Assembly: GCA_937926785.1 (NCBI GenBank)
Contig: CALBBQ010000013.1
Location: forward strand, 3,209 to 67,208
Length of the DNA: 64,000 nt
DNA from: an uncultured Bacteroidales bacterium
Lineage (GTDB): Bacteria; Bacteroidota; Bacteroidia; Bacteroidales; Tenuifilaceae
Direction of reading: 5' to 3'
This document shows positions 10,419 through 20,769 of the stretch, piece by piece. Numbering within the stretch: the first letter of the stretch is position 1; every line of letters begins with the position of its first letter. Below the pieces are notes generated by a model. It searched no databases and was not told the DNA's origin. It worked only from the letters and a program-made list of their open reading frames with translations. The position numbers and the translations under genes are program-made.

Positions 10419-11606
10419 TTAGTATGAATACCTATTGAGTTCGATAAAGGTTTTGAGGTACTCGTTCTGCAGCTCCAGCAATTTTAGGCGAAGCCCGTAA
10501 ATGCCTGAAAGCTCTGTATAGTAATCAACAACCGATATCTCGCCCTTTTCCAGGGCAAGGGTCAACTTGGCTTCAATATCTAATTTATCTAATGTTGAAC
10601 TCAGCTGATTAATGTTATCGCTAAGCGACCTTGCTCTATCGTAAAGCGATTTTGAACGAAGCCTGAAACTTAAGAGGTAGTCCTCTGCGGCGAGCTGTAA
10701 CTGCTTGGCATTCGCCTTAGCATACCTTACGGTATTTGCCTTCTCCCAAAGGGGGATTTTGATCCCGGCTACAACTCCTTGAAACTGTTCGCCGGCAACC
10801 TTTTCGCTGGCATAGCCTGCATGAAAGGATGGTAAGCTTTCGGATTTTGAAAGCTTCACTTGCAGCTCACCCAATGCCACCTGGGAATTTAGAAACTGAA
10901 TTTCAGGGTTTTGCTGTTCTGCAGTGGCTAACCAACCCTCAAGAGTAACGGGTAGCATTGGCAGCACCATTACTGAATCGGTTATGCTAGCAGGGATACC
11001 TCCATTTATTGAATTTAAATCGCTGTAAATGGATTTTAGAGAACTTTCGGCCAACTTAAGCGACGTGAACACCTCCTGTAGTTTAAGCTCTGCCTGAGTA
11101 AGAGGGATTATCCCTATTTCGCCCACCTCCATTTTTCGACGAAGCGCATTGGCAATAACCTGAGCACTTCTGAACTGGCGTGTCAGCTCATTAACCAAAG
11201 CGACATGGTAAACATAATCAACATAAAGCTTATGAGCGTTGCTTAGTATCTCGGTTCGACGAGTGCGAAAGTCGTACTCCAGCAATGATGAACGGTTTGT
11301 TGCAATCTTACCTCGGTATAGGTAAGCAGTTGGGAAATCAAAGCTTTGGGTTATGCTGATTGTTGTTTTATTGCCAATATCCACCGGGCTCCCCCATTGG
11401 TAAGTGATTTCAGCTTCAGGATTCGGGGGAGTTAACCCAATTCGCGAAGCAATCTTCTCGGCCTGCAGCTTCTGCCTCAAGGCTTTCAGGGTAAGGTTAT
11501 TGTTATCTACTTGCTGTAAAAAGTTTTGCAAACTGCTATTCTGCGCATTTACCAACGATACAAAGGTAAGAGTAAGTAACAGACAGAGCATTTTATTCTT
11601 CGCCAT
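10419..11606 (-). CDS. TolC-family outer-membrane efflux protein
   Basis: Likely ATG at 11606 (MAKNKML, signal peptide), overlapping the RND stop by 14 bp. NNLTLKA, helical repeats, GIKIPLW and LEKGEISVVDY. Confidence 0.88.
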   Translation of the reverse strand: MAKNKMLCLLLTLTFVSLVNAQNSSLQNFLQQVDNNNLTLKALRQKLQAEKIASRIGLTPPNPEAEITYQWGSPVDIGNKTTISITQSFDFPTAYLYRGKIATNRSSLLEYDFRTRRTEILSNAHKLYVDYVYHVALVNELTRQFRSAQVIANALRRKMEVGEIGIIPLTQAELKLQEVFTSLKLAESSLKSIYSDLNSINGGIPASITDSVMVLPMLPVTLEGWLATAEQQNPEIQFLNSQVALGELQVKLSKSESLPSFHAGYASEKVAGEQFQGVVAGIKIPLWEKANTVRYAKANAKQLQLAAEDYLLSFRLRSKSLYDRARSLSDNINQLSSTLDKLDIEAKLTLALEKGEISVVDYYTELSGIYGLRLKLLELQNEYLKTFIELNRYSY

Positions 11607-14600
11607 TTTCAGAAATTTTATCAGGTTTAACAAACAAGTTGTAAACAATGGGAATGATATACATGTTTAAAAGAGTTGATGTTAACAAACCACCCAGGAT
11701 TACTTTAGCCATTGGGCTTTGAATCTCATTTCCGGACATGTGACCATTAAAAGCAAGTGGAATTAGTGCCAGCGCTGCCGTGAGAGCAGTCATCAGTATA
11801 GCGTTTAGCCTATCCGATGATCCCCGCTCAACTACCTCCTGAATACCATGTCCCATTTTTCTGTAGCGTAAGTAGTTTGACACTAAAAGTATTCCATTTC
11901 GGGTTGCTATGCCAAAAAGCGAAATGAAACCTATTATGGCAGGAATACTGATCACTCCAGAGGTCAACCAAATGGCAAAAACACCCCCAATTAGAGCCAA
12001 TGGCAAGTTCAACAGTATAACACCGGCCAATCCGAAGTTACGAAATTCTATAAAAAGAAGCATAAATATCACCAAAATTGATAAAAATGATGCGATAAGC
12101 AGGGTTCGTGAGGCCCGAGCCTCACTCTCAAACTGACCCCCGTACTCAATGCGGTATCCTTCGGGGAAACTTATATTTTCATCAATTTTTCGTTTGATAT
12201 CATTGACAACGCCTCGCAAATCTCTACTTGCCACGTTAGCCGATATTACAAGTTTTCGTTGGACGTTCTCCCTACTTATGGCATTAGGCCCGGTGGTTGA
12301 AATCACCTCGGCAACATTTGCCAAGGGCACCTTTCCCTGGGTGGGCGAATCGATAAGGATAGACCTTATTCCCTCCAGTGATGATGAGTATGTAGAATCG
12401 AGCCGGACAACCAGGTCGAAGCGTTGCTGACCCTCATATATATCGGCAAGCTTCTCACCTCCAAGAACTACCTCAATGAATTCATTAAATTCTTCAAGAC
12501 TAATTCCATACCAGGCAAGTAAGGCTCGGTTAGCCCTAATCTGAATCTGTGGAACATCAACCTGTTGCTCAACATTCACATCAACCAAACCATCAATATC
12601 TACTATTTCGGACTTTATTTGGTTACCTATGCTGTAAAGCCTTGTAAGGTCGTTACCAAAAATCTTTAAGGCAATACTAGCCCTTGTTCCGGTGAGCATA
12701 TGGTCAATCCGATGCCCTAGTGGCTGACCAACCGTTACTGCAATACCCGGAATGCGGGCAAGGGATGAGCGGACATCGGCTAGAACCTCATCAATTTTAC
12801 GGTTTTTCAGCTCAAAATTGACATCAATTTCAGAGCTATTGGTTGCCTGTGAATGCTCGTCGAGTTCTCCCCTACCCGTTCTACGAGCCGTCGATACAAC
12901 CTCGGGTATGGCCAGCAATTGATGCTCAATGTAGTTACCCACTGTATTAGTCTCATCGAGCGATGTACCCGGTGGGGTTACCACCGAAAGGGTTAAGGAA
13001 CCTTCATTGAACTCGGGCAAGAAACTACGCCCCATTCTTGAAATAAGAAACACGGATAATGCAAATAGAATAACCGTTCCGGTTAGCAGCACCTTTTTAT
13101 GCCTCATGGCATACCGAAGAGAACTTTCGTACCAACGTATTAACCTTGCGGTAAGCCATTGTTCGTGGCTATGTCGCTTCAAGTACCTATCGTTTGAAAG
13201 AAGCATCTGGGCGAGAACTGGTGTTAGGGTCATGGCAACCAGCAACGACATGGAAAGAGAAACGATAAAGGAGATGCCCAGGGGTTTCAGCATGCGGCCT
13301 TCCATGCCACTCAGGAAGAAAAGGGGCAAAAAGGCAACAATAATTATCAGTGTAGCATTTAGTATGGATGAGCGGATCTCCCGGGATGCCTCGAACACCA
13401 CCGTAAAGTTAGATTGCCTCTCGCCTTGGGGTTTAAGTCGGTTTTGCCGTAACCGCTTGTAAACATTCTCCACATCGATAATAGCATCGTCCACCAGCGA
13501 GCCGATGGCAATAGCCATACCCCCCAGGCTCATGGTATTAATGTTTAGACCAAGAAACTTCATCACCACAAAAGTTGCCAGCAGCGAAATGGGAATCGCA
13601 AGTAACGAGATTATGGTTGTTCTGAAGCTGCCAAGAAAAAGAATTAAAATGATGGAAACAAAAATAGCACCCTCAATTAGAGCCTGTTGCACATTTCCAA
13701 CCGAGCGCTCAATAAAATCGGCCTGTCGGAAAATTTTAGTGTTTAACCGCACATCGGGAGGTAATGTTTTTTTCAGGTTTTCAAGGTTTTCCTCAATTCT
13801 GCGGGTTACTTCCAGCGTGTTGATGTTGGGCTGCTTTGATATTGAGAGGATAACTGCCGGCGTTGCATTGCTCGAAGCATATCCCATTTTAGGTGCAGCC
13901 CCCACATGCACATCCGCAATATCGCTCACCACTACCGGTAAACCATTACGTGTGGCAACCAGCGTCATACCAAGCTGTTCAATATCAGAAGTGCGAGCCA
14001 AACCACGGACCACATACTCATTCCCGTACTCACGAATGTTAACCCCTGATGAGTTTAGGCTGATGAACCGGCAGGCGTTTACTAGTTCATGCATGGAAAC
14101 GCCCATGTGCAACATGCGAACGGGATCGGCAACCACCTGGTACTGCTTATAATCACCTCCAATTATGGTAACCTGCGATACCCCACCCGTTGATAGGATT
14201 AGAGGCTTAACTGTCCATTCGGCCAGCGTCCGCAAATCCATCATACTAGTGCTATCGGCCTGTAAGCCAACAAAAAATATCTCACCCATAACGCTACTCT
14301 GGGGAGCAAGCATGGGTTGTCCCACCCCCATGGGCATTTGTTGAGCTACAGCAATAAGCTTCTCGCTAACAACCTGACGAGCTTTAAAAACATCCACACC
14401 CCATTCGAATTCTACCCAAACAAATGAGAACCCTTGTGCCGATACCGAACGTACCCTTCGAACATCAGTAGCACCATTCACGGCTGTTTCAATGGGGAAG
14501 GTAACCAATCGTTCTACTTCTTCGGCAGCCATACCATGTGCATCGGTCATCACAACTACCGTGGGTGCTGTCAGGTCAGGAAATACATCGATATCCATTT

Positions 14601-14697
14601 GCGAAACCGTGTACAAACCAACAAGAACCAACACCAAACTGCTGATAAGTATCAGATACTTGTTCCTGAGAGAAAAACTAATCAGTTTATCGAGCAT
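11593..14697 (-). CDS. CusA/CzcA-family heavy-metal efflux RND permease
   Basis: 1034 aa. MLDKLISFSLRN, DVFPDLTAPTV, TM4 IGSLVDDAIIDVENV, FLPEFNEGS, RLNAILMTALTA, PMAKVILGGL. Confidence 0.93.
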   Translation of the reverse strand: MLDKLISFSLRNKYLILISSLVLVLVGLYTVSQMDIDVFPDLTAPTVVVMTDAHGMAAEEVERLVTFPIETAVNGATDVRRVRSVSAQGFSFVWVEFEWGVDVFKARQVVSEKLIAVAQQMPMGVGQPMLAPQSSVMGEIFFVGLQADSTSMMDLRTLAEWTVKPLILSTGGVSQVTIIGGDYKQYQVVADPVRMLHMGVSMHELVNACRFISLNSSGVNIREYGNEYVVRGLARTSDIEQLGMTLVATRNGLPVVVSDIADVHVGAAPKMGYASSNATPAVILSISKQPNINTLEVTRRIEENLENLKKTLPPDVRLNTKIFRQADFIERSVGNVQQALIEGAIFVSIILILFLGSFRTTIISLLAIPISLLATFVVMKFLGLNINTMSLGGMAIAIGSLVDDAIIDVENVYKRLRQNRLKPQGERQSNFTVVFEASREIRSSILNATLIIIVAFLPLFFLSGMEGRMLKPLGISFIVSLSMSLLVAMTLTPVLAQMLLSNDRYLKRHSHEQWLTARLIRWYESSLRYAMRHKKVLLTGTVILFALSVFLISRMGRSFLPEFNEGSLTLSVVTPPGTSLDETNTVGNYIEHQLLAIPEVVSTARRTGRGELDEHSQATNSSEIDVNFELKNRKIDEVLADVRSSLARIPGIAVTVGQPLGHRIDHMLTGTRASIALKIFGNDLTRLYSIGNQIKSEIVDIDGLVDVNVEQQVDVPQIQIRANRALLAWYGISLEEFNEFIEVVLGGEKLADIYEGQQRFDLVVRLDSTYSSSLEGIRSILIDSPTQGKVPLANVAEVISTTGPNAISRENVQRKLVISANVASRDLRGVVNDIKRKIDENISFPEGYRIEYGGQFESEARASRTLLIASFLSILVIFMLLFIEFRNFGLAGVILLNLPLALIGGVFAIWLTSGVISIPAIIGFISLFGIATRNGILLVSNYLRYRKMGHGIQEVVERGSSDRLNAILMTALTAALALIPLAFNGHMSGNEIQSPMAKVILGGLLTSTLLNMYIIPIVYNLFVKPDKISENGEE

Positions 14698-14709: not shown

Positions 14710-16248
14710 TTAGTGAACATGACCCGAGTGTGCATCTAGCTTACCAGAACTCTGAGCCATTTTAACATAAATTGCCCCGCGGGTAACAATTCGTTCGCCG
14801 ACCCGAAGTCCGGAGACAACCTGAACCCTTAATCCATCTGAACCCCCAAGTTTTACCTCTCTTTTTTCAAATAATTCGGGTTGAAGCTGTACAATTACAA
14901 AATAGTTACCCTGTTCCTCCAAGATAGAGGTTTGAGGAACCGTAATAGCAATCTGATCAGGCTTGCAAAGCAAAAACACTTCAACAAAATCGCCATTTGT
15001 AAGTTTATCGGTATGAGGTATTTCAAGTGTAACCGGAAGTAAGTGATTGTCAGCGGTAATTGATTTTCCTGCAGCGACAATTCTGCCGGCAAGTGTTCCA
15101 ATATTAAGAACTGTAGCGGTTGAACTAACTCTGATATTCGCATCGCTTAATGAACTTATCAGCCGGGCAAACCTTGGCTGAACGTAACATTGAATTTGTT
15201 GGCTTTTAGAACCAGTTAGTCTTATTAGAGGCTGACCAACGGAAACGAAATCGCCGTTTCTAACCATAACTGCGGCAACCTCTCCATTTAACGGACTTGA
15301 AATTGTCTGCCCTTCCGAAGAGTTATGCTGAACAATGGCCTGATAAGCGGCCTGGGCTACTTCATATTCGGTCCTGGCGCGATCCAGCTCTGCGGTTGAT
15401 GCTACGTTTTCAACAGCTAATGCCTTAAGCCGCTCATAAGCGGATCGGGCTAGCTCAAACCGGCTCTTGGCTTCGGCAAACCTGATGGAGAAGTTATTGT
15501 CTGTCCCGCCTTGGGATGAAATGCGTAGTAGCGGTTCAGATTTTTTCACACCCATTCCAGGAGTTAACTGCTTTTCGGCAAAATCTATCACACCCGAAAT
15601 CCCGGCTACCACCACCTGCTCATCCTGCTGTGCAGGCATTACCCTTCCAGTTGTTTGTATCACCTGGCCTAATGGCCACAAAGCAACCAACTCGGTGGCA
15701 AAATCTACGGCCCAAGCCTGCTCCTTGCTGAACTTGATGGTATTACCATTCGACTCATGTACATGATCCTCCTCCCAGTCGTGTTCGCAGTGGTAAACAT
15801 TAAGATTGCCCAGGTTCACAGAGTGATGTTGGCCATTCCATGAAAGCATAAGCTTGGCATTGGCCTTGCCATGAGCATCGAATTTTACCGGGATAAGAAA
15901 AATGCCCTTAGCTCCTGTTGATTGGGCTTGGAATGAGTAAACCTTACCATTCAGGTCGATATCAAGCCTAAGGCTGTCGGGCTCTAACGGCTTAAAACTG
16001 GTTAAGCTTGTAAGGTGCACTGCCAGGTCAACATTCTTGCCTGAAACCATGGGGCTGCCAACTATGTAAATTTCCAAACTATCGGTATAATTGACAAAAT
16101 GAACTACCTCCTCTGTGGCATGAGACCCTGCTTCATGGTCATGAGCATGCGGATCGGATTCAGCAGTTCCATGTTTACCATTGCATGCCGTAAAAAATAA
16201 TGGAATGGCAACGATAAAATGAAATATATATCTGTTCATACTTTTCAA
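14710..16248 (-). CDS. RND periplasmic adaptor (membrane-fusion) lipoprotein, His-rich
   Basis: TTG at 16248 or ATG at 16239. Lipobox FFTAC, His clusters PHAHDH, HCEHDWEEDHVH and terminal AHSGHVH. ISSPLNGEV, FEKREVKLG and SGLRVGERIVTRGA. Confidence 0.9.
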   Translation of the reverse strand: MKSMNRYIFHFIVAIPLFFTACNGKHGTAESDPHAHDHEAGSHATEEVVHFVNYTDSLEIYIVGSPMVSGKNVDLAVHLTSLTSFKPLEPDSLRLDIDLNGKVYSFQAQSTGAKGIFLIPVKFDAHGKANAKLMLSWNGQHHSVNLGNLNVYHCEHDWEEDHVHESNGNTIKFSKEQAWAVDFATELVALWPLGQVIQTTGRVMPAQQDEQVVVAGISGVIDFAEKQLTPGMGVKKSEPLLRISSQGGTDNNFSIRFAEAKSRFELARSAYERLKALAVENVASTAELDRARTEYEVAQAAYQAIVQHNSSEGQTISSPLNGEVAAVMVRNGDFVSVGQPLIRLTGSKSQQIQCYVQPRFARLISSLSDANIRVSSTATVLNIGTLAGRIVAAGKSITADNHLLPVTLEIPHTDKLTNGDFVEVFLLCKPDQIAITVPQTSILEEQGNYFVIVQLQPELFEKREVKLGGSDGLRVQVVSGLRVGERIVTRGAIYVKMAQSSGKLDAHSGHVH

Positions 16249-16333
16249 ACTTATTAGAAACGAAACTATTAAATGACATTTGTACAGGAAGAGAATTTCT
16301 CCTGAAAAGCATTACTCAACCTTGAAAAGCTTA

Positions 16334-16753
16334 TTAAAAGGGAGGCGCTCTGAATAGAAAACTGCTGGTTAAGAATCTTTGCCGTAGTGGAAAATAGTCA
16401 ATTAGACTAAACTTTCGGTAAATGATTGATGTTAATAAGGAAAAGCTCTCTGCAGATATACCCGATAAAAGATAATACTCAAATTGAATTGTGGGCCAAG
16501 TCAACAATACACCAACAAACCTGAACTTCTCCACCTGTGTGATATCGTTCAGTAAGCTGCACGATTGTGGGTACGAGGGGTTATGTGAAGCATTACTGCC
16601 CTCTCCATTGCTGGTGCCATTGTGGTTAAACTGGCCATGGCGCAACTCCACGAAACAAATAGAGCCATTGTGATGGTGATGAGGCACGAGATTATGTACC
16701 TGTATCATCACAAGCCCGGCAATAAGGAAAGCTAAAGCTATGCCTCGTTTCAT
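16334..16753 (-). CDS. Exported His-rich leader protein (DUF6769-like) ending in RAPP; candidate regulatory arrest peptide
   Basis: ATG at 16753, just downstream of TATATTTG (16777-16770). N-terminal hydrophobic segment, PHHHHNGSIC, and C-terminus FLFRAPPF-stop-stop. First gene of the efflux operon. Confidence 0.8.
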   Translation of the reverse strand: MKRGIALAFLIAGLVMIQVHNLVPHHHHNGSICFVELRHGQFNHNGTSNGEGSNASHNPSYPQSCSLLNDITQVEKFRFVGVLLTWPTIQFEYYLLSGISAESFSLLTSIIYRKFSLIDYFPLRQRFLTSSFLFRAPPF

Positions 16754-16936
16754 ACCCAAAGCGTTGCGGCAAATATACATTAAGATTTAGATTTACCTAT
16801 TGGGTTTAAGAATATTTGTATTCAAGGTAGAAATAATAGCACTAAGACATATTAATTTGATTTTCTTTACGTTACGTGTGTTTTTTAGGTTTTATTTTCC
16901 AAATAACATATATTTGCACCAAATGGTGTTTGCCTT

Positions 16937-17686
16937 ATGCAAATCGCTTTACTTTCGCTAAATACGCTATACATCATACACATCTTTGTATTATTGTTAG
17001 CAATTGCATACCTAATACTATCCCGTCGAAGACTTAAGCGTACAGTGCTCAGGTACGAGCAACAAATGTTGCTTTCACAGATGAATCCCCATTTCGTGTT
17101 CAACTCGCTAACTGCCATTCAAAGTTTTATTTTCCGTAACGAGCCCCATACGGCAAGTAAGTACCTTGCAAGTTTTGCTAAGCTTACCAGACTTATTCTT
17201 GAAAACTCCAGGGCTGAACTCTGTAGTATAGAAAGGGAAATTACAACCCTTAAACTTTACCTCGATCTGCAAAAATTAAGGTTCGATAATAGGTTTGAAT
17301 ACTCTATTGAGGTTGATGAGAAGATCGACCCTTCACACATTTTAATTCCTCCCATGCTTGCACAACCCCTCATAGAGAATGCCATTGAACACGGTTTAAA
17401 TGGCATTGATTGGCCCGGAAAGATTATCATTCGATACTCAATACCTGAACCAAAGCAAGTCATCATAGAGGTTGAAGATAATGGCATAGGGATAGAAAAA
17501 TCAAAGGAAAAACAGCTATTGACAGGCAAAAAGCATAAGTCCCTGGCCACCGAGATTATCGAAGATAGAATCAGGAACTTAAAAAAACTAGGAAATTACG
17601 GAATTAAATTGAACGTTTTGGACAAAACGGTATCGTTGAAGAACGGGAAAGGCACGATTGCACGAATTGAAATTCCAATTAAGTAA
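16937..17686 (+). CDS. LytS-type histidine kinase with a single N-terminal TM and no evident sensor domain
   Basis: SQMNPHFVFNSL H-box, IPPMLAQPLIENAIEHG, VEDNGIG. Own TATATTTG at 16909-16916. Confidence 0.88.
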   Translation: MQIALLSLNTLYIIHIFVLLLAIAYLILSRRRLKRTVLRYEQQMLLSQMNPHFVFNSLTAIQSFIFRNEPHTASKYLASFAKLTRLILENSRAELCSIEREITTLKLYLDLQKLRFDNRFEYSIEVDEKIDPSHILIPPMLAQPLIENAIEHGLNGIDWPGKIIIRYSIPEPKQVIIEVEDNGIGIEKSKEKQLLTGKKHKSLATEIIEDRIRNLKKLGNYGIKLNVLDKTVSLKNGKGTIARIEIPIK

Positions 17687-18414
17687 TGGTAAAGGCAGTA
17701 ATAGTTGACGATGAAAGGCATGCAAGAGATTCTCTGGCTCAAATGCTTAATGTTTATTGCCCGGCTGTTGCCGTAACGGGTTCTGCCGATGGAATCCAGT
17801 CAGCTTATCAGCTCATCATATCCACCAAACCCGACTTGGTGTTTCTGGATATGCAGCTTGTAGATGGTCACGGTTTCGATCTTTTAAAAAAATTTGATCG
17901 CATTCCCTTCAAGGTAATCATAATCTCGGCATATCAGGAATACGCCGTTAAAGCCTTCAAGTTCAGCGCTGTTGATTACCTTCTTAAGCCTATTGACCCC
18001 GACGACCTTGCTAAAGCGGTTGACATAGCCCTTTTACAGGACTTAAACGATAAACAGCAAGAACGGCTGAATGCTCTTATTGAGAATACAAGTAATGTGA
18101 GCAAAAAGAAGAAACTGCTTGCTCTCAGAAATTCCGAAGGCACCTTTATAGTCAATACGCTGGAAATAGTTCGATGCGAGTCCAATAACAATACTACAAC
18201 ATTTGTTCTGGTGGATGGAAATAAGATTAGAGTAAACCGAACTCTCAGGGAATTTGACGAAATGCTGAACGAATGTGGATTTTTACGTTGCCACCAGTCG
18301 CACTTGGTAAATCAGATGCATATCGAGAAGATATCGCGCTTTCCATCGTCGGTAATTACCATGGACAATGGTGATGTTGTTCCGGTATCTTTTCGAAAAA
18401 GGAAATCATTATGA
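17686..18414 (+). CDS. LytTR-family response regulator
   Basis: VIVDDE, LVFLDMQL, AVDYLLKP and C-terminal FLRCHQSHLVN. 1-bp overlap with the kinase. Confidence 0.92.
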   Translation: MVKAVIVDDERHARDSLAQMLNVYCPAVAVTGSADGIQSAYQLIISTKPDLVFLDMQLVDGHGFDLLKKFDRIPFKVIIISAYQEYAVKAFKFSAVDYLLKPIDPDDLAKAVDIALLQDLNDKQQERLNALIENTSNVSKKKKLLALRNSEGTFIVNTLEIVRCESNNNTTTFVLVDGNKIRVNRTLREFDEMLNECGFLRCHQSHLVNQMHIEKISRFPSSVITMDNGDVVPVSFRKRKSL

Positions 18415-18436
18415 TAATCGGGTTACTACAAGATCA

Positions 18437-18515
18437 GTTAACCTTAAGTTAACATTGCGTTAGCTTAAAGGTAAAATTAAAGTGGTCATTCTTACATTAC
18501 GTGGAGATAACTTTG
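18437..18515 (+). promoter_or_regulatory. Four 11-bp-period repeats (candidate Pho box) plus -7 promoter element of the phosphate transporter
   Basis: GTTAAC 18437, GTTAAC 18448, GTTAGC 18459, GGTAAA 18470; TAACTTTG at 18508-18515. Confidence 0.7.
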
Positions 18516-18534
18516 CACTGCAAATTTTTACACA

Positions 18535-20769
18535 ATGGAAACATACTATTTATTCATCGTAGGAATCCTCTTCTTACTTGCCATTTCGGACCTAATGGTG
18601 GGTGTTGCAAACGACGCTGTTAACTTCCTTAACTCAGCCATTGGTTCAAAGGTTGCAAGCCGGCACTGGATTCTGCTGGTAGCATCAGCAGGAGTTCTGG
18701 TAGGGTCACTGTTTTCAAGCGGCATGATGGAAGTTGCCCGGAAAGGCGTGTTCCGGCCTGAAAATTTCTACTTCAGCGAGATGATGGTAATTTTCCTTGC
18801 CGTTATGATTACCGATGTCATAGTCCTTGACTTTTTTAATACATTCGGCCTACCAACATCCACAACCGTGTCGTTAGTATTTGAGCTTTTAGGCTCAGCT
18901 GTTGCTGTTTCCCTTTACAAAATCATGAATACCCAAGGTGAAACTATAGCAAACCTGGGGAACTACATCAATAGCGGTAAGGCTTTGGCAATTATATCGG
19001 GTATTCTCAGCTCAGTTGTTGTGGCTTTCATTGTAGGTATGGTAGTTCAATACATCGCTCGCCTACTGTTTAGCTTTAACTACCAAAAAAATCTTAAGCT
19101 TGTTGGAGGTATATGGGGTGGGTTTGCCATGACAGCTATTACCTACTTCATCGTGATGAAAGGAATAAAGGACACACCAATAATCCCCAAATACATTTTA
19201 AATTACATATCGGCAAACACCTTTATCATCTTACTTTATAGCTTTGCTATATGGACAACTATATTTCAAGCACTTGTCAGCCTCTTTAAGGTGAACGTGC
19301 TGCGGATAATTGTGCTAATGGGTACTTTTGCCCTTGCACTCTCTTTTGCAGGGAATGATCTGGTTAACTTTATTGGGGTTTCAATGGCAGGTTTAAAAGC
19401 TTACCAGATCCACATGGCAAATCCTGATGTAGCCCCTGATGCACTTAGGATGACAGAACTTGCCGGAGAAGTTAGCACGAACTTTATTTACCTGTTCATA
19501 GCCGGCCTAATAATGGTTATTACCCTTTGGGCTTCGCGAAAAGCCAGAACTGTTACGGATACGGAAGTAGGCCTTGCCCGACAGGATAGCGGAATGGAAC
19601 GATTTGGCAGCACACAGTTTTCGCGAATCATTGTTCGTGTGGCTCTTAGGTTTTCGAAGCGAGTGGATAAAATCACCCCACGTGTTGTTCGCAAATTTGT
19701 GGCAAAGCAGTTTGATACCAGTAGGGCGCCCAAGTATTCGAACCCAAAGGAAGCCCCATCGTTCGATTTGGTTCGCGCTTCGGTTAACATGGTAATGGCT
19801 AGCATTCTGATCAGCTCCGCTACAGCTTTAAAACTTCCTCTCTCAACCACCTACGTTACCTTTATGGTAGCCATGGGTACATCGCTCAGCGATAAGGCCT
19901 GGGGGCGCGAAAGCGCTGTTTACCGTATAACGGGAGTTATTACAGTTATTGCAGGTTGGTTTTTCACTGCTTTAATAACATTCACTCTTGCATTTGCAAT
20001 TGCCACTGCCCTATACTTTGGGAAAGGAATTGCATTGTTCATTCTAATCGTCTTTGCTATTGTCTCAATAATAAAAACGAATCTTTTACACCGAAAGAAA
20101 AGCCAGAAGTTACTGGAAGATGAAGCAATTGACAATGCCAGTATTGTTAACAAGTGTACCAATGAACTTCGCAGGTACCTCAAGCAATCCATTAGGGTAT
20201 TCAATCGCACAATCGATGGCCTAACCACCGAGAATCGGCGCCAGCTCAAGGAGGTTAACGAGGAGGTGGAGACCCTTAACATGGAGGCCAAGCAGATGAA
20301 GTACAATGTTTTCAACGTACTAAAACAACTCGAAGCCGATTCCATTGAAACGGGTCACTACTACGTTCAGGTGATAGACTACCTCCGTGAACTTGCACAC
20401 TCACTCGAGTTCGTCTCTCGTCCAAGTTTACAGCATGTCGAAAACAATCACAAAGGTTTAACCCGCGAGCAGGCTGCAGAGCTAAAAGAGCTTAGCAACC
20501 AGCTTTCAGAACTTTTCGACGATATACTTTTCATGATTAAGCAAAACGATTACACCTGGGTACCTGATGCGGTTAAAAAGCAACAGGATATCATGGAAGA
20601 ACTGAATAAGATTAGAAAAAAACAGGTTAAGCGAATTAAGCAGGGTGAAACCGGAACCCGTAACAGCGTTCTTTATTTAGGTTTACTCAATGAAATTAAA
20701 AACCTGTTGCTCCATACTATCAACATTCTAAAAGCTCAGCGCGACTTCATTCTGAATAATATTGAGTAG
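18535..20769 (+). CDS. Inorganic phosphate transporter (PiT family) with C-terminal PhoU-like helical domain
   Basis: PiT signatures GVANDAVNFLNSAIGS and FAGNDLVNFIG, GLPTSTT, LPLSTTYVTF, then about 230 aa of soluble helical tail. Confidence 0.9.
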   Translation: METYYLFIVGILFLLAISDLMVGVANDAVNFLNSAIGSKVASRHWILLVASAGVLVGSLFSSGMMEVARKGVFRPENFYFSEMMVIFLAVMITDVIVLDFFNTFGLPTSTTVSLVFELLGSAVAVSLYKIMNTQGETIANLGNYINSGKALAIISGILSSVVVAFIVGMVVQYIARLLFSFNYQKNLKLVGGIWGGFAMTAITYFIVMKGIKDTPIIPKYILNYISANTFIILLYSFAIWTTIFQALVSLFKVNVLRIIVLMGTFALALSFAGNDLVNFIGVSMAGLKAYQIHMANPDVAPDALRMTELAGEVSTNFIYLFIAGLIMVITLWASRKARTVTDTEVGLARQDSGMERFGSTQFSRIIVRVALRFSKRVDKITPRVVRKFVAKQFDTSRAPKYSNPKEAPSFDLVRASVNMVMASILISSATALKLPLSTTYVTFMVAMGTSLSDKAWGRESAVYRITGVITVIAGWFFTALITFTLAFAIATALYFGKGIALFILIVFAIVSIIKTNLLHRKKSQKLLEDEAIDNASIVNKCTNELRRYLKQSIRVFNRTIDGLTTENRRQLKEVNEEVETLNMEAKQMKYNVFNVLKQLEADSIETGHYYVQVIDYLRELAHSLEFVSRPSLQHVENNHKGLTREQAAELKELSNQLSELFDDILFMIKQNDYTWVPDAVKKQQDIMEELNKIRKKQVKRIKQGETGTRNSVLYLGLLNEIKNLLLHTINILKAQRDFILNNIE

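Follow-up and report, generated by a model that had tools for sequence, protein, structure and literature searches.

A DUF6769 protein as a probable metal-sensing arrest leader of heavy-metal efflux operons in Bacteroidota

Introduction

What does a small exported protein with a ribosome-arrest motif at its very end do at the head of a heavy-metal efflux operon? The question is raised by a stretch of 64,000 nucleotides (nt; hereafter the window) from an uncultured member of the Tenuifilaceae (Bacteroidales), whose own assembly amounts to 2.77 Mb. An initial annotation of the window had drawn attention to a small open reading frame (ORF) combining an export segment, the string PHHHHNGSIC, a second Cys and a RAPP end. 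This ORF is indeed present, on the minus strand at 16753–16334 (139 amino acids, aa), and its RAPP codons lie at 16351–16340, exactly where they had been placed.

RAPP and RGPP are versatile arrest cores that act in varied contexts and are resistant to elongation factor P. Two metal-responsive leaders serve as points of reference for the ORF described here. In the cutFOG operon of Rhodobacter capsulatus, CutF is an exported leader at which metal-induced stalling switches a detoxification gene on; in the model for this system, metal in the periplasm lengthens the stall, and the ribosome, by lingering, opens the RNA that hides the next start (bioRxiv 10.1101/2025.02.05.636593; PMC9973294). CruR of Bordetella pertussis (BP2923), a DUF2946 protein, arrests in vitro at the proline codons of its RAPP, the first (Pro3) occupying the P site and the second (Pro4) the A site.

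Here we argue that the 139-aa ORF is a cis-acting regulatory leader whose predicted, metal-responsive arrest would drive expression of the pump, and not a structural protein, a reading to which we assign a probability of roughly 0.7. Judged from its sequence and its relatives, it is a conserved and almost certainly regulatory element, most likely of the CutF/CruR nascent-peptide metal-sensor kind, with stalling and metal response as predictions.

Results

Architecture and conservation of the leader

The leader reads MKRGIALAFLIAGLVMIQVHNLV-PHHHH-NGSIC...C65...SSFLFRAPPF and is followed by tandem stops, TAA TAA (16336–16334 and 16333–16331, together 16331–16336; all features of the leader and its operon are on the minus strand). 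A KR-containing n-region precedes a hydrophobic helix, the predicted signal or signal-anchor segment, which covers residues 2–22 (16688–16750). The PHHHH motif occupies residues 24–28 (16670–16684), and a variable segment rich in His, Asp, Glu and Cys, presumed to bind metal from its composition across the family, spans residues 29–64 (16562–16669). Cys65 (16559–16561) is invariant and has a conserved Leu two residues after it. The RAPP codons, AGA GCG CCT CCC (16340–16351), are separated from the stops by a single Phe codon (16337–16339). An alternative ATG upstream, at 16780, would extend the protein by 9 residues to 148 aa; since it overlaps an invariant promoter box (TATATTTG, described below) and is replaced by GTG in four of seven close relatives, we take 16753 as the likely start.

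An exhaustive profile search of 1.84 billion representatives returned 81 proteins, nearly all of about 140 aa. Motifs were counted in 86 relatives, and column conservation was scored in a 69-sequence alignment with a mean identity of 25%. The C-terminal motif is RAPP in 70 of the 86 sequences, RGPP in 9 and RSPP in 2, always 1–5 residues from the end, and the five exceptions comprise two truncated proteins, one frameshift-like case, one RAPS and one SRPPP. In the alignment H25, H28, C65, R135, P137 and P138 are invariant and P24, H26 and H27 nearly so, while the second position of RAPP is Ala, Gly or Ser. Expressed as the mean fraction of the top residue, conservation is 0.98 in the PHHHH block and 0.96 in RAPP, while the two linkers score 0.29 and 0.22. 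A check suggested with the initial annotation, whether terminal RAPP/RGPP and HHHH would be retained while the linker drifts, is thus answered in its favour, with RAPP or RGPP 1–5 residues from the C-terminus in 79/86 relatives. Across loci, RAPP is encoded by all six Arg codons and by varied Ala and Pro codons, and selection therefore acts on the peptide rather than on the RNA. Six close homologues (66–94% identity), at syntenic loci, retain both SSFLFRAPPF and PHHHH.

A second regularity concerns spacing. The segment from HHHH to Cys ranges from 22 to 47 residues and is composed, family-wide, of 14% His, 12.5% Asp, 9.7% Glu and 7.5% Cys. The distance from Cys to the Arg of RAPP is 69–73 residues in 60/69 sequences, and the stretch in between is the least conserved of the protein (22%). 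This stretch resembles a ruler of fixed length. In an AlphaFold2 model computed with the 69-sequence alignment, the helix at residues 2–22 is the sole confident element (predicted local distance difference test, pLDDT, 91–95); residues 23–139 score 52–67 and have no secondary structure. On this model the leader product does not look like a folded protein. A search for relatives of solved structure gave His-tag noise only.

Taken alone, the window leader reaches 17 bits against PF20558 (DUF6769; cut-off 27), and only with its N-terminus. A profile built from its close homologues, by contrast, retrieves proteins that all match PF20558 (best 5.7e-19, over the full length including the RAPP end); all 69 aligned relatives match the family, and four close homologues (P0001, P0002, P0003 and P0005) were already annotated with it. 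By profile comparison, the leader ORF (16334–16753, including the first TAA) is a divergent DUF6769 member. A laboratory strain of Bacteroides thetaiotaomicron likewise possesses a DUF6769 gene.

Two departures from the canonical pattern were seen among the relatives. In three Bacteroidaceae metagenome-assembled genomes (MAGs; L035:1927–2397, L036:1876–2376 and L037:1927–2397), PHHEH stands in place of PHHHH and GLRAPN with a longer tail in place of RAPP, and the spacer to czcB is merely ~30–35 nt; in this lineage the arrest function may have been lost or rewired. In a Draconibacterium MAG (L042:~200–493), a single but interrupted frame upstream of czcB contains both PHHHH and GLRAPPFSV, so that the leader there is either a pseudogene or misassembled.

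Use of R[AG]PP in the window genome

How unusual is a terminal RAPP in this organism? A crude proteome of the window's own assembly (2443 ORFs, 852,000 aa) contains R[AG]PP three times in total, each time 1–4 residues from the end of a His-rich ORF of 106–148 aa with an N-terminal signal or transmembrane (TM) segment. The probability that all three occurrences would fall within ≤5 residues of a C-terminus is ~3e-6. This three-motif pattern mirrors the distribution in Streptomyces lividans, where seven of nine R[AG]PP proteins are likewise of the C-terminal type and all seven arrest translation in vitro.

The two further ORFs have neighbours of their own. The second (G000 C18:35029–35385, minus strand; equivalent to L047:3030–3386, minus strand) encodes an exported, His-rich protein of 118 aa that ends in HSNRAPPIV and has no match in Pfam or NCBIfam; it lies directly upstream of a gene for an 802-aa TonB-dependent receptor. 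The third (G000 C31:12461–12781, plus strand; equivalent to L048:3462–3782, plus strand) encodes 106 aa with FHHHHTHYCDHGC and the end NPRGPPLDSI, and is preceded by a resistance–nodulation–division (RND) pump and adaptor pair and followed by a 744-aa TonB-dependent receptor.

The leader at the head of a metal efflux operon

Three genes follow the leader. The first encodes a czcB-like periplasmic adaptor lipoprotein with His-rich ends (14710–16239; TIGR01730 at 128.6 bits, cut-off 94.9, and HlyD families), the second an RND pump of the CusA/CzcA heavy-metal family (11593–14697; TIGR00914 at 784 bits, cut-off 701) and the third a TolC/OEP outer-membrane factor (10419–11606; PF02321, 1.9e-28). 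The operon thus unites pump, membrane-fusion adaptor and outer-membrane factor, as do the heavy-metal efflux RND systems CzcCBA and CusCBA. Metal specificity could not be read from the pump, as its closest solved structures, CusA (480 bits) and ZneA (471 bits), are equally near. The spacer between the leader stop and the likely czcB start, ATG 16239, is 94 nt long (16240–16333); the 85 bp given earlier hold only for a start at TTG 16248. Most relatives have spacers of 73–102 nt.

The association of leader and pump extends well beyond the window. Ten loci were taken from different families and classes of Bacteroidota, one of which (L027) is a partial match without a leader. In seven of the nine leader-bearing loci, czcB-czcA-tolC or tolC-czcB-czcA follows after 73–204 nt, and in the other two a small membrane protein. 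Four further metagenomic contigs show the leader–pump arrangement again, and no transcription regulator recurs nearby. Searching from the pump side, we found the leader at 9/9 informative Bacteroidota loci (five canonical, three degenerate with PHHEH/RAPN and one interrupted). With one locus counted per clade, a metal RND operon stands behind the leader in 14/16 independent loci, and sec or yidC never does. Inspection of the genes behind homologous leaders, another check that had been proposed at the outset, therefore returns heavy-metal RND efflux across distant Bacteroidota.

At some loci the gene next to the leader is a different one. Leaders ending in LLRAPPILS (L022:2992–3949) and GLRSPPIIWV (L026:9335–10375) precede a small membrane protein, which is a DUF2231 protein in L022, and not a pump; their neighbours look mercury- or copper-related. 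In L031 (7527–7790) and L034 (2206–2469), an 87-aa His-rich, lipoprotein-like ORF without a Pfam match is inserted between leader and czcB.

A TATATTTG box at 16770–16777, 24 nt before the leader ATG, matches the Bacteroidota −7 consensus TAnnTTTG and is invariant in 7/7 close relatives. Among distant loci, TAnnTTTG is found 13–34 nt before the leader start in 11/14 and inside the leader–pump spacer in only 2/16. Since the box precedes the leader and is rare in the spacer, and since the region shows no terminator-like site and no Rfam family, the leader heads the operon. The initial annotation had named an independent pump promoter as a finding that would count against it, and no conserved one is apparent in the spacer.

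Other forms of control were sought in and around the spacer and rejected. No terminator-like site that could act as an intrinsic terminator or attenuator is present in the window spacer; a search of Rfam at E <= 1 over 15900–17100 gave no riboswitch or other known RNA; and the spacer fold is not unusually stable (z = 0.09 versus shuffles). Nor is the spacer C-rich in the manner of Rho-utilisation sites, with a C/G ratio of 0.75 in the window and of ~1 across the family, a measure that proved uninformative.

A model for metal-responsive arrest

These features suggest a model in which transcription from the TATATTTG promoter would span the leader and czcB-czcA-tolC, and the N-terminal helix would target the nascent leader to the Sec translocon. 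Elongation would arrest once the ribosome has reached Arg-Ala-Pro and Pro-tRNA has entered the A site; if the CruR toeprint is taken as a guide, CCT (16345–16343) would then lie in the P site and CCC (16342–16340) in the A site. From geometry we infer that the ~70 residues between the invariant Cys and the peptidyl-transferase centre correspond roughly to the length of exit tunnel plus translocon. PHHHH, the His/Asp/Cys-rich stretch and the Cys would already be periplasmic at the moment of arrest, where binding of metal would shorten or lengthen the arrest. By remaining on the last codons, a ribosome could keep the next start region open or protect the transcript, and the pump would be produced only in the presence of metal. 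By analogy with CutF, metal most likely lengthens the stall; we favour this direction because the pump should be on at high metal and because SecM, CutF and CruR all have downstream expression switched on when stalled. We infer that arrest occurs, that metal is bound, which way the response runs and, for this particular locus, how stalling is coupled to expression.

A more specific version of this model, to which we give less than even odds and which is offered tentatively, is that DUF6769 leaders constitute an independently evolved, His-based and Bacteroidota-specific transmembrane stalling sensor. Here the ~70-residue ruler would set the Cys at the periplasmic mouth of SecYEG, and the arrested ribosome would unmask the AU-rich start, devoid of a Shine–Dalgarno (SD) sequence, of a pump of the Zn/Co/Ni/Cd type. 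If this version were true, it would amount to a dedicated metal regulator without a transcription factor. No arrest-peptide switch would have been described in Bacteroidota before it, and none would previously have been shown to control initiation that is independent of SD sites.

Complementarity between the stall region and the next start

Bacteroidota generally do not use SD sites, and any masking must therefore cover the AU-rich start region. We compared the stall/stop region with the start region of the next gene (−25 to +12) at 16 independent loci. Cognate duplexes have a mean of −10.2 kcal/mol and non-cognate ones a mean of −7.0 (permutation p = 5e-5), the cognate pair ranks first in 6/16 loci (binomial p = 3e-4), and a control segment of the same length taken 60 nt upstream gives −6.9 kcal/mol (Wilcoxon p = 3e-4). 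The helices differ in sequence from locus to locus, with 11 bp across the czcB AUG in L020 and 13–15 bp in L018 and L030. By analogy, such stall/start complementarity is the logic of SecM and CutF, in which a lingering ribosome would open the next start site. When the stall footprint was masked in partition-function calculations, the effect on accessibility was positive in ~7 loci (among them L018, L020, L025, L030, L031 and L039). In L031 and L034, the leader stop region pairs with the start region of the inserted 87-aa ORF.

The window itself offers two weak candidates for a masking helix. In the first, CUUUUCAA (16322–16329) pairs with UUGAAAAG (16248–16241) just before the czcB AUG, at −12.1 kcal/mol (z = −2.3), a duplex better than all 19 cross-locus pairs. 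In the second, an RNAalifold consensus, UCUAUUCA (the Leu-Phe codons and the first base of the Arg codon, 16351–16358) pairs with UGAACAGA (16238–16231) over the czcB start; this helix is perfect in most of seven relatives and has an A.C mismatch in the window, and its conservation is uninformative because both arms are coding. The spacer also contains a hairpin, CAGGAG-N8-CUUCCUG (16285–16304), which begins 31 nt after the stop and whose stem is kept in 7/7 close relatives with G-U/A-U changes only.

Several findings speak against a leader that stalls and thereby opens the pump gene. First, the accessibility test did not reach significance on the 16 independent loci (p = 0.19), and masking the stall footprint in the window alters the predicted accessibility of the start by merely +0.01, with no effect in the window clade. 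Second, the footprint duplex of the window has a z of −0.2, and masking pairing is weak both there and in close relatives; the CUUUUCAA/UUGAAAAG helix begins 3 nt outside the stretch that a ribosome halted one codon ahead of the stop could cover, and close relatives do not retain it. Third, the window spacer holds TAAGTTTG at 16253–16246, 14 nt before the czcB ATG, a candidate for an independent pump promoter that we reject as it is retained in one of six close relatives and TAnnTTTG is present in 2/16 spacers family-wide. Fourth, most relatives have A/V-H-A ahead of V/I-P-HHHH, resembling a signal-peptidase site, and the corresponding site of the window leader, VHN, is non-canonical. The three Bacteroidaceae genomes that retain the ORF with RAPN indicate, furthermore, that it can persist without the canonical motif. 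Lastly, our literature searches found no direct evidence that any DUF6769 protein stalls ribosomes, binds metal or regulates a gene, and no relevant work on DUF6769 or on czc regulation in Bacteroides.

Alternative roles for the leader

The complementarity and the ruler also bear on whether the same leader might operate with the opposite logic. In that case arrest in the absence of metal would keep the pump off, and metal would fold the exported His/Cys segment, pull on the chain and release the arrest, so that arrival at the stop codon would turn the pump on, either by disrupting a hairpin or terminator or through termination and reinitiation. The pulling force proposed in the initial annotation fits the fixed ruler of 69–73 residues, and CruR provides a precedent for arrest relieved by metal. 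Several relatives, moreover, have a stable hairpin 1–9 nt after the stop, followed in two of them (L021 and L025) by a U-run, and a hairpin so placed could be reached by a terminating ribosome and not by a stalled one. The position of the hairpin is not conserved, however: that of the window begins 31 nt after the stop, and the window has no terminator-like site. The family-wide complementarity of stall/stop region and start fits a stall that opens, and in every characterised case (SecM, CutF and CruR) it is the stalled state that permits downstream expression. We therefore regard the opposite logic as unlikely.

Could the protein, rather than its synthesis, be what matters? DUF6769 might be a periplasmic or membrane-anchored metal-binding accessory protein, a chaperone or sensor similar to CzcI or CusF, in which RAPP serves the mature protein, for instance as an interaction or sorting tag. 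The gene occupies the position of czcI in Cupriavidus, whose product is proposed to act as a protein; an exported segment rich in His and Cys would suit a chaperone, and the RAPN variants retain the ORF. Against this stand the absence of any predicted fold past the signal helix and the behaviour of the 63 residues between Cys and RAPP, which at 22% conservation and fixed length resemble a ruler and not a domain. Apart from small exported ORFs of this kind, the proteome contains no RAPP, a motif that is generally avoided; the residues that follow it vary in number and identity, and all seven comparable proteins of S. lividans arrest. An accessory protein is accordingly, in our estimate, quite improbable.

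That the stalling leader gauges not metal but the capacity for Sec export or membrane insertion, as SecM, VemP and ApdA do, with an incidental His-rich region, would recall the founding members of the class, the RAPP monitors of Sec-pathway substrates, yet we consider it very improbable indeed, given the metal efflux genes downstream in 14/16 loci, where sec and yidC never occur, and the conservation of PHHHH and Cys as strong as that of RAPP.

Relation to CutF, CruR and published surveys

The reading of the ORF as a metal-responsive arrest leader can be set beside known systems. Both CutF and the window leader come first in a metal-detoxification operon with a spacer of < 100 nt. The window sensor, however, is PHHHH plus one Cys where CutF has CxxxC, the stall motif is RAPP and not PPP, the target is an RND pump and not a multicopper oxidase, and the masking helix in the window is weak, unlike in the CutF model. 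The inversion of logic relative to an uptake gene, which the initial annotation had anticipated, already has a precedent in CutF that it missed. In terms of the four 'CutF-like' filters of Öztürk 2023, the window leader has 139 aa (<150), PP at residues 137–138 of 139 (last 15), a signal helix and a same-strand gene at 94 nt (<=1000).

With CruR, the window leader has in common a RAPP a few residues before the stop, a fixed spacing between metal motif and RAPP and its place as first gene of a metal-homeostasis operon (PMC9426467). The two differ in that CruR controls an uptake receptor, that copper relieves its arrest and that its output is Rho-dependent termination (PMC9426467), whereas the window target is efflux and the window spacer has no C-over-G bias (C/G 0.75). 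Spacing from CXXC to RAPP is 45 residues in CruR, with a spacer of 162 nt (PMC9426467), and ~70 residues in the window; the leader here has no CXXC or CXXXC at ~45 residues from the stall motif, and what is shared is the principle of fixed spacing. CruR, which the initial annotation had put forward as an exported sensor, is a poorer analogue than claimed, for it can do without its signal peptide and is presumed to sense metal in the cytoplasm (PMC9426467). Homology with DUF2946 (PF11162) was tried and rejected: when the 69-sequence alignment was compared with 11 DUF2946 proteins by hhalign, nothing beyond the nine RAPP columns aligned, with a probability of 2.9%. The window protein has no DUF2946 match, and 8/69 relatives have sub-threshold ones (best E = 0.0025; e.g. 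13.8 bits against a cut-off of 23.7). We postulate, by analogy, that the DUF6769 leader works like CutF or CruR without being a relative of either, its function being a prediction. CzcI of Cupriavidus metallidurans, compared by description, is likewise a small exported protein encoded directly upstream of czcCBA and a proposed metal-sensing regulator, but has no C-terminal proline motif.

Published surveys have touched on this class of leader. Öztürk 2023 lists 5334 'CutF-like' proteins, of which Bacteroidota contribute 19%; their genes are often found next to those for OEP, ACR_tran and HlyD_D23 (PMC9973294). Fujiwara 2025 counts 620 RAPP upstream ORFs (uORFs) before RND adaptor genes, 16-fold over AAPP (Fig. 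4B), as well as 530 before TolC genes and 50 before CusA/CzcA genes; 591 of the 620 RND-adaptor-linked uORFs have a predicted signal peptide, and the list contains entries named 'DUF6769 family protein' (PMC12992588). The window leader has the sequence properties selected there: <300 aa, R[AG]PP one residue before the stop, a signal/TM helix, a same-strand gene at 94 nt and the motif in 79/86 homologues. Fujiwara 2025 offers counts only, its main text never mentions efflux, and it contains no DUF6769 experiment and no analysis of sensor motif, spacing or RNA pairing (PMC12992588), all three of which are analysed here.

It follows that the class is not new, as RAPP leaders before RND adaptor genes, DUF6769 among them, are already in the published lists (Öztürk 2023; Fujiwara 2025). 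The statement in the initial annotation that this family is uncharacterised as an arrest peptide holds insofar as no literature on DUF6769 was found, and overstates its novelty in view of the DUF6769 entries of Fujiwara 2025 and the CutF-like leaders of Öztürk 2023. Useful additions made here are the triad of PHHHH, Cys and RAPP, the 69–73-residue ruler, the exclusive use of R[AG]PP in this genome, the promoter before the leader and the family-wide complementarity of stall and start. Were the reading confirmed, many Bacteroidota, gut Bacteroides among them, would set the level of their pump through a nascent peptide that detects metal in the periplasm while it is itself being exported, rather than through a two-component system or a MerR/ArsR regulator. 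Confirmation would also extend the CutF/CruR principle to a sequence-unrelated, His-based family and to a phylum that initiates without SD pairing. As the concept is already published, the gain is a well-defined test case and not a new principle, and PHHHH, the single Cys and the 69–73-residue ruler are clean mutational handles.

Genes divergent from the leader

On the other side of the leader, a co-directional group on the plus strand (16937–20769) encodes a sensor-less LytS-type histidine kinase of 249 aa, a LytTR response regulator and a PHO4 phosphate transporter. Kinase and response regulator were considered as regulators of the efflux operon and rejected, because their synteny with the leader operon is confined to the close clade, their orientation is towards the PHO4 transporter, and distant loci lack them. 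The divergent kinase gene, which starts at 16937, has an apparent TATATTTG box of its own, read as CAAATATA on the minus strand within window positions 16900–16940. This box is invariant in seven relatives and forms, together with that of the leader, a compact back-to-back promoter region.

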